From: a virus
Taxonomy: Duplodnaviria; Caudoviricetes
Strand: one strand, 5' to 3'
IMG/VR virus record: IMGVR_UViG_3300044984_002188
Span: 1-57,011 of that record
Length of the DNA stretch: 57,011 nt
The position numbers and the translations under genes are program-made. Under the pieces are notes generated by a model, which worked only from the letters and a program-made list of their open reading frames with translations, ran no database searches and had not been told where the DNA came from. Below are positions 4,693-35,502 of this stretch, piece after piece. Positions within the stretch are counted from its first letter, which is position 1, and every line of letters begins with the position of its first letter.

Positions 4693-4929
4693 ATGAACAC
4701 AACACTCAAGACATCAAAGATTGGGAGTAACCATGCCACCTTCAGCGGCAATGAATATATGTTCATTGAATGGATGTATAAAGTGAAGCCTGAGTTTGAA
4801 TACAACTACATTAGACTTGACGATGCGTTTACCATTCTTTTTGATGGTAACAAGAAGTTTGCTAATGACATTCTTAAGTTTATTCGTAATGACGGACACT
4901 ATACGCTTATAAACAAGAATTGGAAATAA
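4693..4929 (+). CDS. Hypothetical protein
   Basis: ATG 6 nt after TTGACA(4659)-16-TATCAT(4681). Confidence 0.7.
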   Translation: MNTTLKTSKIGSNHATFSGNEYMFIEWMYKVKPEFEYNYIRLDDAFTILFDGNKKFANDILKFIRNDGHYTLINKNWK

Positions 4930-5702: not shown

Positions 5703-5877
5703 AAAGAAAATTACCAAGCCTGCTCCTAGACGTTATACTCCATTCTTACCACCACAACGAGTAATGCATTTTCTTATTGATTTAAGCATTCTTGCTTTAC
5801 TTGTTTCGTGTGCTAGTTCTCTTGTTGTATTGACTGTGCAACTCTGTCAGAAGATTACCATTACTGTTGGAAAGTAA
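5692..5877 (+). CDS. Small membrane protein
   Basis: Probable TTG start; basic N-terminus then hydrophobic stretch FLIDLSILALLVSCASSLVVLTV. Confidence 0.55.
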   Translation: MTTKKKITKPAPRRYTPFLPPQRVMHFLIDLSILALLVSCASSLVVLTVQLCQKITITVGK

Positions 5878-5878
5878 T

Positions 5879-6421
5879 ATGACCACGTACTTCATTGGTT
5901 GCCCACACTTTGGACACGAAGCAATGTATCGCTTCGTTCGTGCCAATGGTGAAAAGGTTCGTCCATATGCATCAGCCGCAGAAGGTGATGCCGTTATAAT
6001 GGAGAATTGGAATAAGACTGTTTCCAAAGGTGACAAGGTGTATGTCATGGGAGATGTAGCATTCACACCCAAGGATCTCAAGATTCTTGAATCACTCAAT
6101 GGTTCCAAGATTCTTATCAAGGGTAACCATGACACTCTCGAACTTTCAAAATATGCCAAGTACTTTCGTGATGTTCGTGCTTATCACAAACTCGATAATG
6201 AAATTCTTTCGCATATTCCAATTCACCCCGTATCTCTGTGGAGAGCCAAGCGGAATGCATCTTGGCTAAATATTCATGCCCATCTTCATGCCGAAGAAGT
6301 GATGCTTGCAGAAGGAGTGACAGATCTGAGATATTTCTCTTGCTGTGTGGAGAGAATAGGGTATACTCCTATAAGTATTGATGAGATACGAAATCGTGTT
6401 GCTAAACTTCACTTAACCTAA
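5879..6421 (+). CDS. Calcineurin-like metallophosphoesterase
   Basis: CPHFGH, VMGDV, KGNHD, LSHIP, NIHAHLH motifs. Confidence 0.9.
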   Translation: MTTYFIGCPHFGHEAMYRFVRANGEKVRPYASAAEGDAVIMENWNKTVSKGDKVYVMGDVAFTPKDLKILESLNGSKILIKGNHDTLELSKYAKYFRDVRAYHKLDNEILSHIPIHPVSLWRAKRNASWLNIHAHLHAEEVMLAEGVTDLRYFSCCVERIGYTPISIDEIRNRVAKLHLT

Positions 6422-8710: not shown

Positions 8711-8968
8711 ATGGCAAATTTTAAACCTATCGGCAAATACATTTGGGTCAAGACTACTTTTGGTGGCGAAAAGACCAACGAGTTTGGTATCATCTACCAA
8801 GAGCGTTCTAAGTCCAAGTTCATTTGGAGTACTGTTCTCGCTATCGGTGATAAGTTGACCGAAGATATCAAGGTTGGTGATGAGATTCTTTGGGATGTCA
8901 CCCAATTAAAAGATGGCTACAGTGGAAACCATTTAGTGCATCAAGATTGGGTTCAGGCTACTAATTAA
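8711..8968 (+). CDS. groES: GroES-like co-chaperonin (gp31 analogue)
   Basis: FKPIGKYIWVK, KTNEFGII mobile loop, VLAIG, IKVGDEIL; 85 aa. Confidence 0.85.
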   Translation: MANFKPIGKYIWVKTTFGGEKTNEFGIIYQERSKSKFIWSTVLAIGDKLTEDIKVGDEILWDVTQLKDGYSGNHLVHQDWVQATN

Positions 8969-13900: not shown

Positions 13901-14541
13901 TTTCCCAACATTCTAGAAATCTTTTGTGATACCGATTCCTTGACTGTTTTCCAGTTTTTGCTAGGAAGTTCGTATTTTCCTTCATCTTCTGGTTCTTCTT
14001 CATCGCCCATTACATTATCAGATGCATCAAGTCTTACGTCCTGAGCATCAGCATCACCATCTCTATCAACGTCAGTAGGTTTAGAGTCATGTGCCCATGG
14101 GAAAGACGGTAGTCTACCAATTTCTTCTGTACCTGAATCTGGATCTGTTGGATTAAATGAGTCGTCAGCATCTCCATGATAGCCAGTTTCTACACGTTGT
14201 ACACCAGTACCAGTAGCTTGTTTTTCAGCCCTGACTTCTGCAACTCTATCTTGAAATCCATCAAAATCAAAATCACTTAGTTCTCCACCACCAGAACTTT
14301 TAGCAGCGGCAGCTGCTTTAGCAGCAGCTTCTCTATTCTCACGCCGCTTTACAGTATCTGCAGCTTCACGAGCTCTTTTTGCAGCTATTCCTGCTTCACT
14401 GCGATTTGGCTTATTAGCCTCGGTAATCATCTGGTTTCTTAACTCACGTTGTTCTGCAAGAATTTCAAATCCTTTTATTTGAGATTGTACACCAGCTTGA
14501 TTTAAGGAATGAATCCAACCGTAATAACCTTTGTTCTTCAT
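13897..14541 (-). CDS. Late hypothetical protein, acidic, with DxDxDG motif
   Basis: ACTAAATA at 14547-14554, 5 nt before ATG 14541. Confidence 0.75.
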   Translation of the reverse strand: MKNKGYYGWIHSLNQAGVQSQIKGFEILAEQRELRNQMITEANKPNRSEAGIAAKRAREAADTVKRRENREAAAKAAAAAKSSGGGELSDFDFDGFQDRVAEVRAEKQATGTGVQRVETGYHGDADDSFNPTDPDSGTEEIGRLPSFPWAHDSKPTDVDRDGDADAQDVRLDASDNVMGDEEEPEDEGKYELPSKNWKTVKESVSQKISRMLGN

Positions 14542-14546
14542 ATTAT

Positions 14547-14581
14547 TATTTAGTTGACACAAAAGTTCTATGTGCTATACT
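14547..14581. promoter_or_regulatory. Divergent promoter pair: late (-) and sigma70-type (+)
   Basis: ACTAAATA on -; TTGACA(14554)-16-TATACT(14576) on +. Confidence 0.75.
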
Positions 14582-14587
14582 CCCTCT

Positions 14588-14722
14588 ATGACTTATGGTT
14601 CACACGGTGCAGGTAAGGGAAGTTCACCCAGACACGTAAATTTGGAACAATATGGTAAAAATTATGAAGCAATTTTTAAAAAGAAGCCAGTAAAGAAAAA
14701 GTCTAAAAAATCACCTAAATAA
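14588..14722 (+). CDS. 44-aa basic peptide (not in ORF track)
   Basis: MTYGSHGAGKGSSPRHVNLEQYGKNYEAIFKKKPVKKKSKKSPK; ATG 6 nt after the -10 box. Confidence 0.75.
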   Translation: MTYGSHGAGKGSSPRHVNLEQYGKNYEAIFKKKPVKKKSKKSPK

Positions 14723-14727
14723 ACTAC

Positions 14728-14810
14728 GCAAGAGTACTCAAGCGGTCAACGAGAGCAGATTGTAAATCTGCTGATTAATTTCTACGAAGGTTCGAATCCC
14801 TCCTCTTGCA
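14728..14810 (+). tRNA. tRNA-Tyr (GTA)
   Basis: Acceptor GCAAGAG/CTCTTGC; GCAGA-tt GTA aa-TCTGC; long variable arm; no encoded CCA. Confidence 0.9.
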
Positions 14811-14852
14811 TTTATTATTTGACTTCTCCTTGGATATGTGTATAATATGACC

Positions 14853-15209
14853 ATGAAAACACCTCCAGATCCAATTAAAAAAAATTCATATCATATTTCA
14901 GAGTCTGTATTAAAACAAATGGATGAAGCCAAGCGAGTTAAAAAAATGTATAAAACTCCTAAACATTACGAATATGATCCATCTCTAAATGGTTTGACCG
15001 AACCTGGGTCAAACCAAGTTGCTATCAATCAAGCACTCAATGATAGAATGAAAGAATTGCAGACTAGAAATATGGCTTTAGAAAGCAGACTTGAAAGGCT
15101 TGAAGCAGTTTTAAGTTCTAAACACTTTCTTGACTTTACTAGTAAGTTAGAAGAAATGACTGATAAACTAGATGATCTTCAATCTAAAATAGATTTACTT
15201 GACGAATAA
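14853..15209 (+). CDS. Coiled-coil hypothetical protein
   Basis: TTGACT(14819)-16-TATAAT(14841), ATG 6 nt later. Confidence 0.7.
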   Translation: MKTPPDPIKKNSYHISESVLKQMDEAKRVKKMYKTPKHYEYDPSLNGLTEPGSNQVAINQALNDRMKELQTRNMALESRLERLEAVLSSKHFLDFTSKLEEMTDKLDDLQSKIDLLDE

Positions 15210-15232
15210 ATAAACCGGAGTATATTATTATT

Positions 15233-15406
15233 ATGCCTAACTCAAAACAACGTATTACCAAGCGTGCTCATAGAAAGCGTGAAGAACGCATGAAGCGTAA
15301 TCGTATTCAGAGCCTTATGAAGGCTCGTGTTGGTACACTTCGCAGTCTTGACGCGAGTGGACAACTTCCTGTATGTGTCAAGGAAAAGAGACTGCCCAAT
15401 GGCTAA
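15233..15406 (+). CDS. 57-aa very basic protein (not in ORF track)
   Basis: MPNSKQRITKRAHRKREERMKRNRIQSLMKARVGTLRSLDASGQLPVCVKEKRLPNG; TTGACG-16-TATATT-6-ATG. Confidence 0.7.
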   Translation: MPNSKQRITKRAHRKREERMKRNRIQSLMKARVGTLRSLDASGQLPVCVKEKRLPNG

Positions 15407-15695
15407 AACTGCCACAATGATGTCGTTTGATGAACTTCGAAAGAAGTATGATCATATTGATTGTTTTTTCACATATTATAATGGAGAGAAATCTTCTTTT
15501 GATTTTTATGGCACTGATGCAAATGGAACCGAGGTTCGTATTTCCATTGGTGGATGTCCTGCATGGATCAAGACCATTGAGTTTGGTCCTAAAGACCCTC
15601 TAAATATTAGTGATTCAATCGAACGTCATGTTCGTTTTGTTTCTGTAACAGATAACCGTGGTAAGCAAGTTTACGAACAATTTTTTGATGTCTAA
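15399..15695 (+). CDS. Hypothetical protein
   Basis: ATG 15399 (MAKTATMMSF) overlaps the upstream ORF end. Confidence 0.7.
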   Translation: MAKTATMMSFDELRKKYDHIDCFFTYYNGEKSSFDFYGTDANGTEVRISIGGCPAWIKTIEFGPKDPLNISDSIERHVRFVSVTDNRGKQVYEQFFDV

Positions 15696-15704
15696 AGGAA
15701 ACTA

Positions 15705-16157
15705 ATGGGAAATTCAGATCATAACGATTTTAGAAATTGGCAAAATGGTGACGATAGCGAAGAGAACAATCCGAATAACGGATTCTTCTTCTTTGGTAAT
15801 TCTAGCCCAGAGTTTAAGAAGATGTGGGATCAAATGCGTAACGGTGAAAACCCTGCAGATAGCCTTCGTGACTATCTTAACATGGATGACATTTTAAATG
15901 AGTGGACTAAGGAAGATAAGAAGAAACACTTTAATCCAAATAATAAGTTTAATCCAAACAATCCACCAAAGCCTTCACGTAAACCTATTCGAAATAAACC
16001 TAAAACTACACCGTTTACTCAAGAAGAATATTTTAAACTTATTGAGATTCGTGGATACCTTGCTATCCAGGAACAGTTTGCACATGTCAAGGCACTAGAT
16101 AAATTGCTTAATCAAATTATTATTAAGCCAATTGATAATTTAGGAGAATTCCAATGA
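15705..16157 (+). CDS. Hypothetical protein
   Basis: AAGGA SD; 150 aa. Confidence 0.7.
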   Translation: MGNSDHNDFRNWQNGDDSEENNPNNGFFFFGNSSPEFKKMWDQMRNGENPADSLRDYLNMDDILNEWTKEDKKKHFNPNNKFNPNNPPKPSRKPIRNKPKTTPFTQEEYFKLIEIRGYLAIQEQFAHVKALDKLLNQIIIKPIDNLGEFQ

Positions 16158-16366
16158 CATATATTGCAGGTGAAGCATACGATAAGGGCTATAAAGCCCG
16201 TATGGGTGGTGCAGAGAAAGCATCTAATGTCTATGAGTCTACAAGTGTATATTGGCAAGAATGGGCTACTGGTTGGGACGATGCTCACACCAAGATAATT
16301 AATGAAGCCAGACAAAATGCTGGCTGTTCAAAACCTAAGTGTTGTAAGACATTTATTCAAGAATAA
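16154..16366 (+). CDS. Ribosome modulation factor (Rmf/CrpP-fold)-like protein
   Basis: AYDKGYKARMGG...NVY...QEWATGWDDA matches the Rmf pattern AxxxGYxAxxxG...CPY...WxxGWxxA. Confidence 0.65.
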   Translation: MTYIAGEAYDKGYKARMGGAEKASNVYESTSVYWQEWATGWDDAHTKIINEARQNAGCSKPKCCKTFIQE

Positions 16367-16392
16367 AAAAAATCCCCGAAAGGGGATTTTTA
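16367..16392. terminator. Bidirectional intrinsic terminator
   Basis: AAAAATCCCC-GAAA-GGGGATTTTT between convergent genes. Confidence 0.85.
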
Positions 16393-34087: not shown

Positions 34088-35502
34088 TTTGCAGCGTCTT
34101 CAAATGTCCAGTTTACTGCCTTATTCTTTTTCTTACCAAAATTAGAATCAAATGCTAATGGATCAGAACCTGATCCGAATCCTTCTTCATTTGTATTATT
34201 TGCATTGACAAGATTATTATTTGAATTTTCTACATCATAGAACTTCATTTTGGATTTATTCACACCAATAAGAAATTTACGATTCTTAGTTGTATCATTA
34301 CCACGGTTCTTTAACTGCTTCACCATGAGTTGACCATTCTGTGCTAACTCTTCAGTCTCAATGAGTGCAATGAAGAAGTCTGTAGTTTGTGGTAGACCAA
34401 AACTTTCAGATGTATCTGTCATCTCCATATCACTACTCTTTGCACCTTCACGATTTACCTGAGTAGCAGACCATAGTGGTACATTGAACTGCTTGGCAAG
34501 ACCACGAAGTTCTTCTGCAATACCCTTGACATAGGTGTAACTATTCATACCGTTTCCCATCTTGAATCTTGCACATGAGCAGATGTTTAGATAATCAACA
34601 ATGATAATGTCCGGCTTAAACTTCTTCTTAATCTTCAGTTCTTCCATAAGATTACGGAAGTGAGTTACATTGGCTGCAGCAGTAGGATATTCTTTAATAA
34701 TAAGTTTACCACGGCAAGTCTTCTTGAGATTGTTTACCTTGTTCTCGTACATAGCAAGAGGCATCTTCTCAAGAACATGAATGTCTGTATCTAAAAGATT
34801 AGCATCAATGCGTTTAGCAATTTCTTCTTCAGACATTTCAAGTGTGATATACAACACATTCAAATTCTGTGTAAGACACGCAGCAGCATGATGGCACAAG
34901 AATGCACTCTTACCAACACCGGATGCTGCCATCACTACGTTGAGAGTCTTCTTGCGAACTCCACCACCTGTGATGAGATTAAACATCTCAAGATCAAATG
35001 GTACACGTTCTTCTACGCGATGATAATATTCATAGCGTTCATCAACATCTTCAAAGAAGTCGTGTCCTACACGAGTATCAAAGGACACAGATAGAGCCTT
35101 AGACATGATCTCAGGAATTGCATTCTGAGTCTGCTCCTTATCCTTACCTTCAATGATCCCGATGGATGCCATGATACCATTATAAATGGCTTTCTCTTTG
35201 CAGAACTTTTCAGTATGTTCTACGAGCCACTCAGTATCAGACTTCTCACCTTCCTTATACATCTCATCAGAGATGGCAACACACTTCTTGAATTCACTGT
35301 CTCCAAGAGTCTTGTCATCTCCAAGTGAAATTAGTACAGCATCCTTAGTAGGAATGTTATTGTACTTAAGAAGAAACTTACTTACAATATTAAAGACTGT
35401 TCGTTCAGCCTTGTCTTGAAAGTATTCTTCTTGAAGGAACGGGACAACCTTGCGAGCAAAGTCCTCATTGAGAACTAAGTTCTTTAGAATAACTGTTTCC
35501 AT
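34084..35502 (-). CDS. 41: Replicative helicase (T4 gp41-like)
   Basis: ASGVGKS Walker A, ITLEM, VDYL, ATQVNR, SESFGLP; TTGACA-16-TATAAT-6-ATG. Confidence 0.95.
   Translation of the reverse strand: METVILKNLVLNEDFARKVVPFLQEEYFQDKAERTVFNIVSKFLLKYNNIPTKDAVLISLGDDKTLGDSEFKKCVAISDEMYKEGEKSDTEWLVEHTEKFCKEKAIYNGIMASIGIIEGKDKEQTQNAIPEIMSKALSVSFDTRVGHDFFEDVDERYEYYHRVEERVPFDLEMFNLITGGGVRKKTLNVVMAASGVGKSAFLCHHAAACLTQNLNVLYITLEMSEEEIAKRIDANLLDTDIHVLEKMPLAMYENKVNNLKKTCRGKLIIKEYPTAAANVTHFRNLMEELKIKKKFKPDIIIVDYLNICSCARFKMGNGMNSYTYVKGIAEELRGLAKQFNVPLWSATQVNREGAKSSDMEMTDTSESFGLPQTTDFFIALIETEELAQNGQLMVKQLKNRGNDTTKNRKFLIGVNKSKMKFYDVENSNNNLVNANNTNEEGFGSGSDPLAFDSNFGKKKNKAVNWTFEDAAK

Follow-up and report, generated by a model that had tools for sequence, protein, structure and literature searches.

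A non-canonical RMF-like protein of uncultivated T4-like lake phages as a candidate adaptor for translation or ribosome rescue

An uncultivated T4-like lake phage carries, at positions 16154-16366 (+) of the window, by which we mean the whole analysed stretch of 57,011 nucleotides, a real gene that is under purifying selection and whose product resembles the bacterial ribosome modulation factor, RMF. The reading that we prefer, at a probability of about 0.4, is that this product is a non-canonical RMF-fold adaptor that would act by protein contacts, the translation or rescue machinery being the leading candidate for its target.

The reading frame runs from ATG to TAA over 70 codons, for a protein of 70 aa. 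The first-pass annotation had pointed to it as an Rmf-like frame with a C-terminal CxxPxCC, quoting stretches of it beside stretches of E. coli Rmf: the former are present exactly there, and the latter agree with the rmf product of NC_000913.3. A scan of viral contigs yields 69 loci that hold the gene, at 47-96% identity, with a dN/dS of 0.12 in the group of 70-aa proteins (166 pairs) and of 0.035 in the 71-aa group (129 pairs). Sixteen further viral-contig loci hold distant relatives, at 35-40% identity. In a large protein collection, all 9 candidates proved to be relatives, at 65-94% identity, and a profile search of 1.84 billion representative proteins returned only 24 matches at E<=0.001; two long proteins among these, P0028 and P0031, were set aside as repeat proteins. 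Lake-water metagenomes contain the window: 18 runs share at least 98% of its words, and some of them are possibly its source.

Searches of other collections returned little. With tblastn, three versions of the family find no match in 50,697 GenBank phage records, and the window protein finds nothing at E<=1 in 72,556 plasmids. The genomes of 185,579 species give only one distant match, a 126-aa acidic protein from a gammaproteobacterial MAG that passes the Pfam RMF profile at 39.4 bits. A profile of the family, A3, has no match in HTVC008M, S-RSM4 and T4 (0/3), in a search run without a positive control, and a weak search for longer fused forms found 0 among 8000 scored candidates. The family sits on viral contigs (69 and 16 loci) and not, as RMF does, on gammaproteobacterial chromosomes; RMF is a stationary-phase factor, whereas the phage gene is led by a Shine-Dalgarno (SD) motif within an operon.

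It is well supported that the hairpin formed by residues ~3-55 shares its ancestry with RMF, although the match is borderline by curated thresholds. The likeness noticed at first pass goes beyond chance: the Pfam profile PF04957 matches residues 7-46 with E 3.9e-6, and its scores, 27.3 bits with hmmscan and 28.6 bits for the gene in a six-frame genome search, fall on either side of the gathering cut-off of 27.9. The NCBIfam equivalog profile of RMF, NF011162, gives E 7e-7 and 29 bits, and misses its cut-off of 40 bits. Among the ten closest family members, 7 match PF04957 at E<=0.1 and 9 match NF011162 at E<=1. BLASTP against E. coli RMF aligns 38 positions, 12 of them identical, with E 1e-4, and hhalign of 36 family members against 15 named RMFs places residues 7-45 on RMF residues 11-48 with 85% probability and E 6e-6. 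A profile of the ten closest members compared to PDB sequences has 6 matches at E<=10, RMF not among them. The core motif of RMF, G-Y-x-x-G-x-x-G ... W-x-x-G-W-x-x-A, is present in the phage family, and the scaffold residues common to both are, in the order RMF/phage, G16/G12, Y17/Y13, G23/G19, W40/W37, G43/G40, W44/W41 and A47/A44, with family variants Y/F at position 13 and W/Y at position 37.

The predicted fold agrees with this kinship. An AlphaFold (AF2) model computed from a 36-sequence alignment has a pLDDT of 82 and helices at residues 7-17 and 32-56; it presents the two alpha-helices and the linker of ~13 residues that characterise RMF. The hairpin, encoded at 16154..16321 (+) by codons 1-56, is thus predicted to share its two-helix form, ~50 residues long, with the RMFs of E. 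coli and Vibrio (PF04957; NF011162; PDB 4V8G, 6H4N, 9IOT, 2JRM). In an exhaustive comparison to 48,161 chains, RMF (4V8G) ranks first with Z 5.4 and an rmsd of 2.9 over 50 residues, but the chain ranked next is unrelated and reaches Z 5.1: structure by itself would not decide the question. A second comparison, with 23 chains, ranks the RMFs 9IOT, 4V8G and 2JRM first to third with Z of 5.5, 5.4 and 4.6, the rmsd to the RMF of 4V8G and 9IOT being 2.9-3.0 over 50 residues. The Foldseek E-values of the RMF matches, 0.9-5.6, are non-significant, and the match of the modelled structure to RMF is weak in absolute terms.

RMF binds the 30S and brings 70S ribosomes to dimerise into 100S particles. What the phage protein does not share with RMF is the equipment by which RMF holds the ribosome. 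In the portion of Beckert et al. (bioRxiv 382572) that describes the RMF site, helix 1 inserts between h28 and h37/h40, residues R3, K5, R8, R11 and R15 hold the 16S rRNA backbone, the N-terminal extension entwines with S7, and the site is incompatible with the duplex between SD and anti-SD. The phage protein lacks the basic N-terminal arm: helix 1 begins after only 6 residues, and no basic residue is among them. Four of the five Arg/Lys residues in contact with rRNA are gone in the phage family, R3, K5 and R8 being absent and the position of R11 being occupied by S, E or Q; only 13 of the 36 members have K at the position of R15. At the position of R45 the family has D, E or N, and W stands in place of R37, which contacts S1. 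The strong positive charge is gone as well: the net charge is +5 to +8 in all 15 RMFs versus -2 to +3 in the 36 family members, the hairpin domain carries -3 to 0 across the 69 loci, and the window protein has a net charge of 0, with -2 on residues 1-53. Judged by its residues, the phage protein is a non-canonical RMF that appears to have lost its contacts to 16S rRNA. With the basic arm and these Arg/Lys contacts lost, protein-protein contacts become its most likely mode of action.

The phage protein also has something that RMF does not have, a tail of 15 residues. In the window, it is encoded at 16322..16366 (+) by codons 57-70 and the stop, contains three Cys and ends in F-I-Q-E. The tail ends are conserved at all 69 loci, as FIQD in 52, FIQE in 16 and FLQD in 1, and the dN/dS of the tail is 0.11. 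Its pLDDT of 51-75, a low-confidence model, suggests that this basic tail is probably disordered. The three Cys (C58, C63 and C64 in the window, as C-x-x-P-x-C-C) are found at 67 of the 69 loci; they are missing in the other two and in most distant relatives, which places them outside any universal mechanism. The end of the tail is kept further: a C-terminal [FY][ILV]x[DE] is found in 14 of 21 distant representatives, usually two residues past a Lys or Arg, on linkers that are unrelated and mostly devoid of Cys. Among the 186 window ORFs of at least 40 aa, the RMF-like one is the only one with such a C-terminal motif. A terminal tetrapeptide kept on a disordered tail resembles a docking motif, and we infer that it may serve as one.

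The RMF-like gene comes last, and is translationally coupled, in a conserved operon of four genes that has a promoter of the host type. This sigma-70-like promoter, identified by consensus match only, lies at 15199..15226 (+) and reads TTGACG-16-TATATT, a 10/12 match. It is one of three such promoters on the (+) strand, the others being at 14554-14581 and 14819-14846, and each is followed exactly 6 nt past its -10 box by an in-frame ATG. In the operon this ATG is at 15233, which predicts a leaderless first cistron. This cistron (15233..15406, +) codes for a strongly basic protein of 57 aa that belongs to no known family and has homologues at 61 of the 69 loci; the idea that it might be a detached RMF arm was dropped, the resemblance being of four residues only. 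The second cistron (15399..15695, +), of no known family either, codes for ~91-98 aa, with a start that is uncertain between 15399, 15417 and 15420 and an SD-like AAGGA upstream; its homologues are found at 66 of the 69 loci.

The third cistron (15705..16157, +) codes for a protein of 150 aa whose N-terminal half is of low complexity and whose C-terminal part contains an invariant helical segment, Y109-K133: across 23 sequences, the C-terminal 25-35 residues are invariant and the remainder is 45-60% identical. This protein has no match in Pfam, PHROG or PADLOC, and no informative match in the PDB or the Atlas. Its gene is directly upstream of the RMF-like gene at all 69 loci, and at 63 of them the stop of the one overlaps the start of the other by 4 nt (ATGA). 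SD-like motifs precede cistrons 2 to 4. That of the RMF-like gene is AGGAG at 16142..16146 (+), 7 nt before the ATG, and one is found at 68 of the 69 loci, the exception being due to the start chosen.

The operon is closed, after the stop of the RMF-like gene and between convergent genes, by a bidirectional intrinsic terminator at 16368..16391: a 10-bp hairpin with a GC core and flanking A/T runs, of -14.2 kcal/mol and z -3.3, with 0 of 200 shuffles equally stable. The three convergent genes downstream are found at all 69 loci and have late-type starts, TAAATA-N5/7-ATG. Just upstream of the operon is a coiled-coil ORF (14853-15206/15209, +) found in only 16 of the 69 relatives; its 14853-15206 form gives the sole PADLOC match, to LmuB with E 0.0023, the four-gene operon having none. 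The sole PHROGs match is phrog_17748, an entry without function, at E 0.014. Further upstream are tRNA-Tyr (GTA), at 14728..14810 (+), and a gene for a 44-aa protein with a basic tail, at 14588..14722 (+), whose frame opens also at 14570 and whose ATG at 14588 is 6 nt past the -10 box of the TTGACA-16-TATACT promoter (14554-14581).

The gene had been described at first pass as closing an early island with tRNA-Tyr and two small basic proteins. The tRNA, the two frames (14570/14588-14722 and 15233-15406) and the terminator after the stop are all in place; the word early is drawn from the type of the promoter only, which suggests such a timing for the RMF-like gene. Contigs from two RNA-library runs cover parts of the operon: they come from relatives that are 85-95% similar, and contigs as such reveal neither transcription nor its starts or strand.

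In divergent lineages, the family is found beside or inside phage tRNA/tmRNA arrays, which is a new observation. A tRNA or tmRNA gene lies within 1.5 kb of the RMF-like gene at 38 of the 69 window-type loci, 57 of which have that much upstream DNA, and at 14 of the 16 distant loci, with a median gap of 16 nt. At 21 of the 69 window-type loci this is a permuted tmRNA ~0.9 kb upstream, and at 4 of the 16 distant ones a standard tmRNA ~0.4 kb downstream. Rfam identifies tmRNAs in 6 of 7 related loci tested: in the window-type lineage, the two-piece tmRNA_permuted (RF04321) adjoins the operon in L009 (4337-4617), L022 (4712-4989), L048 (4581-4859) and L065 (4735-5012), and in distant lineages the one-piece tmRNA (RF00023) is found in L083 (5606-5966) and L088 (5653-5998). 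The permuted tmRNA of relatives comes next after tRNA-Tyr; in L009, it lies between tRNA-Tyr and the coiled-coil gene. This slot is empty in the window and in L002: no tmRNA reaches the Rfam gathering score in the window, and none is found at E<=1 in 14400-15500.

The other neighbours vary by lineage. The 150-aa gene is found by tblastn at 0 of the 16 distant loci, and a tiny protein with the motif HGAGKG(D/S)SxR...Y..N...IF, encoded at 14588-14722 in the window and at 4444-4569 in L074, accompanies the RMF-like gene across distant phages: its homologues are present at 42 of the 69 window-type loci (median identity 88%) and at 10 of the 16 distant ones. In L089 (4633-4989), a protein with this motif is fused to a MazE/AbrB-type domain. 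L074 also has, at 5798-5989, an ORF of 63 aa whose N-terminal helix is hydrophobic; it contains a motif of the RGY type, ends in Y-S-L-V-D, and may be a second, membrane-anchored relative of the RMF-like family.

The linkage to RNA genes suggests a translation-related role for the family. It may just as well stem from a hyperplastic region of small early genes that these phages share, and since the carrier lineages are related, the linkages are not independent events. Excerpts of PMC9004378 report a two-piece tmRNA and bS21 in pelagimyophage-like phages, which are T4-like and of the same ecological type; the relatives of the window phage likewise carry a two-piece tmRNA by the operon, and neither the window nor 4 related records yielded a bS21. 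In those excerpts, the tmRNA and bS21 are bona fide ribosome or rescue components, unlike the RMF-like protein.

Small phage proteins of the RMF fold are already in databases, in many unrelated phages, as far as predicted structures can tell. BFVD and UniProt contain many phage proteins of 45-65 aa with the same predicted hairpin, at 17-34% identity to the window protein, with Foldseek probabilities of 0.8-1.0 and TM up to 0.78, two of which were automatically named 'Ribosome modulation factor'. The window protein fits the description of this class, namely a phage protein of 45-90 aa that has the hairpin and lacks the basic contacts; what sets its family apart is the conservation of the tail, the coupling to the upstream gene and the linkage to tRNA/tmRNA genes. 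A literature search found no paper describing a phage RMF-like protein. CrpP, which the first-pass annotation grouped with Rmf by fold, is a small protein of Pseudomonas plasmids and ICEs and has a disputed function.

The closest parallel is bacterial. According to excerpts of PMC13411936, the RMF homologue BatR (PA3049) of P. aeruginosa has a C-terminal extension of 15 residues, reportedly plays no role in hibernation, and binds the kinase SrkA. By this description, BatR and the phage protein are alike in joining an RMF core to a C-terminal extension of ~15 residues; the extension of BatR is predicted to be helical and its gene lies on a gammaproteobacterial chromosome, whereas the phage tail is predicted to be disordered, is rich in Cys and ends in F-I-Q-D/E. 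By analogy, an RMF homologue that binds a kinase would be a precedent for an adaptor acting by protein contacts.

Such an adaptor is what we propose for the phage. A small protein of the early class, in which a two-helix hairpin derived from RMF is followed by a flexible, basic tail, would be made from a host-type promoter as a translationally coupled last cistron. The last four residues of the tail (F-I/L-x-D/E) would form a docking motif, so that the protein could work as a two-handed adaptor or modulator that binds proteins, and its target would be part of the host machinery for translation or ribosome rescue. The family stayed by or in tRNA/tmRNA arrays as its other neighbours changed, which makes such a component the most likely target. 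The protein-binding mode, the translation-related target and the early timing are the parts of this proposal that we infer.

A target outside of translation is nearly as likely. The protein would then be a host-takeover or regulatory adaptor directed at a kinase, a protease, RNA polymerase, the nucleoid or a defence protein, possibly in a complex with the coupled 150-aa protein. The binding of SrkA by BatR, with its C-terminal extension (excerpts of PMC13411936), argues for such a role, as do the acidic or neutral RMF-fold proteins of many unrelated phages. The 150-aa protein is a candidate partner by its invariant C-terminal helix and by the constancy of its gene, which is adjacent at 69/69 loci and overlapping at 63/69. 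However, the C-terminal motif is kept in distant members that have no such neighbour (0/16 by tblastn), and since the 150-aa gene is absent from distant loci, its product cannot be the universal partner. PADLOC and PHROG gave no function, and a target outside of translation leaves the tRNA/tmRNA linkage unexplained.

Another reading involves the way in which this phage begins its genes. The first-pass annotation held the phage to be rich in leaderless mRNAs, and geometry bears this out: a -10-like hexamer lies 5-7 nt upstream of 23 of the 77 gene starts of the window versus 71 of all 2215 ATG triplets. Its caveat that some genes keep SD motifs is equally sound, with 21 of the 77 starts, including those of the RMF-like gene and of the internal operon cistrons, preceded by one; 2 starts have both features and 35 have neither. 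Twelve window ORFs of at least 45 aa start 5 or 7 nt past TAAATA, the core of the T4 late promoter, and all 12 window ATGs at these distances open long ORFs. Near-consensus promoters of the type TTGACA-N16/17-TATAAT are followed, after exactly 6 nt, by the ATGs at 4693, 8184, 14588, 14853 and 15233 (+) and at 35502, 40537 and 42394 (-). From this regular distance between promoter and start, one predicts that first cistrons of the early as well as the late class are leaderless, and many starts of the window phage are probably leaderless, the support being geometry and not mapped transcripts. At 8711-8968, directly after tRNA-Gln, is a GroES-like gene (Cpn10, 26.8 bits) with an SD-like motif.

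For comparisons between phages, starts were chosen by a uniform automatic procedure, under which the window has 21 leaderless-type starts out of 77. The proportion is 54/214 in 11 related loci pooled, 15/190 in a 168-kb distant carrier and 5/76 in five distant loci; the comparison phages have 0/58 (T4), 2/64 (S-RSM4) and 9/57 (HTVC008M). Leaderless-type starts extend beyond the carriers of the RMF-like gene: HTVC008M shows the geometry, and a homologue was not found there by tblastn or by a profile search without positive control. In HTVC008M (NC_020484.1 1-50000, L101), eight gene starts are exactly 5 nt past a -10-like or TAAATA hexamer, and this abutment of promoter and start may be common to pelagimyophage-like phages in general.

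One can imagine a more specific form of the preferred adaptor, which we consider improbable. An RMF-derived factor, co-transcribed with phage tRNAs and tmRNA, would dock on the small-subunit platform or on S1/SmpB via protein contacts and its F-I-Q-D peptide, retuning initiation or rescue in slow-growing lake bacteria, where it would favour leaderless first cistrons or wake idle ribosomes. If this docking were true, a hibernation factor would have given rise to a viral factor of translation specificity.

The mechanism suggested at first pass is different: seated like RMF on the 30S platform, the protein would mask the anti-SD and so move initiation away from the SD-led mRNAs of the host, towards the leaderless ones of the phage. 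The homology of the hairpin, the exclusion of the SD-anti-SD duplex by the RMF site (in the same portion of Beckert et al., bioRxiv 382572), the linkage to tRNA/tmRNA genes and the leaderless geometry of the window (23/77), of its relatives (54/214) and of the distant carrier (15/190), versus 0/58 in T4, all speak in favour of it. We nevertheless judge it improbable. Four of the five rRNA contacts and the arm entwined with S7 are absent, the remaining residues at contact positions are not conserved, the domain is acidic, and the charge at R45 is reversed. Three cistrons of the operon, the RMF-like gene among them, depend on SD motifs, as do the 21 SD-led genes among 77, so a blocker of the anti-SD would hit phage genes too. 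HTVC008M has the geometry (9/57) and no homologue found, and the RMF-fold small proteins of many unrelated phages count against the mechanism as well. RMF itself is reported, in excerpts of bioRxiv 2025.10.07.680626 and PMC13411936, only in a subset of Gammaproteobacteria, whereas the two-piece tmRNA of the relatives points to other hosts (excerpts of PMC9004378).

It is very unlikely that this is a mini-protein that binds a metal or is redox-active, with C58, C63 and C64, together with H45, as the residues that would hold the metal and the RMF-like part as a mere scaffold: the three Cys are found at 67/69 loci and H45 is nearly invariant in the ten closest members, but Cys is lacking at the other two loci and in most of the distant relatives whose C-terminal motif is kept, H45 is replaced by N, D or S in many family members, and the tail is modelled at low confidence. 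Packaging as virion cargo, suggested by the late-type TAAATA-N5/7-ATG starts of the convergent downstream genes, is just as improbable for a free-standing protein, unfused to a head protein and with no longer fused forms found in a weak search, whose gene has no late motif, a sigma-70-like operon promoter and its own terminator.

If the preferred adaptor has the ribosome or trans-translation as its target, it would reveal how an abundant group of freshwater T4-like phages retunes host protein synthesis. In window-type phages, about one gene in four begins directly at a promoter, and a protein that acts on translation would offer a way into the leaderless translation of uncultured hosts. Should it not act there, the family would be a clear case, alongside BatR, that the profile-based label 'ribosome modulation factor' is unsafe for phage proteins. 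In either case, the function can be approached by experiment through the conserved C-terminal tetrapeptide and the coupled neighbour.
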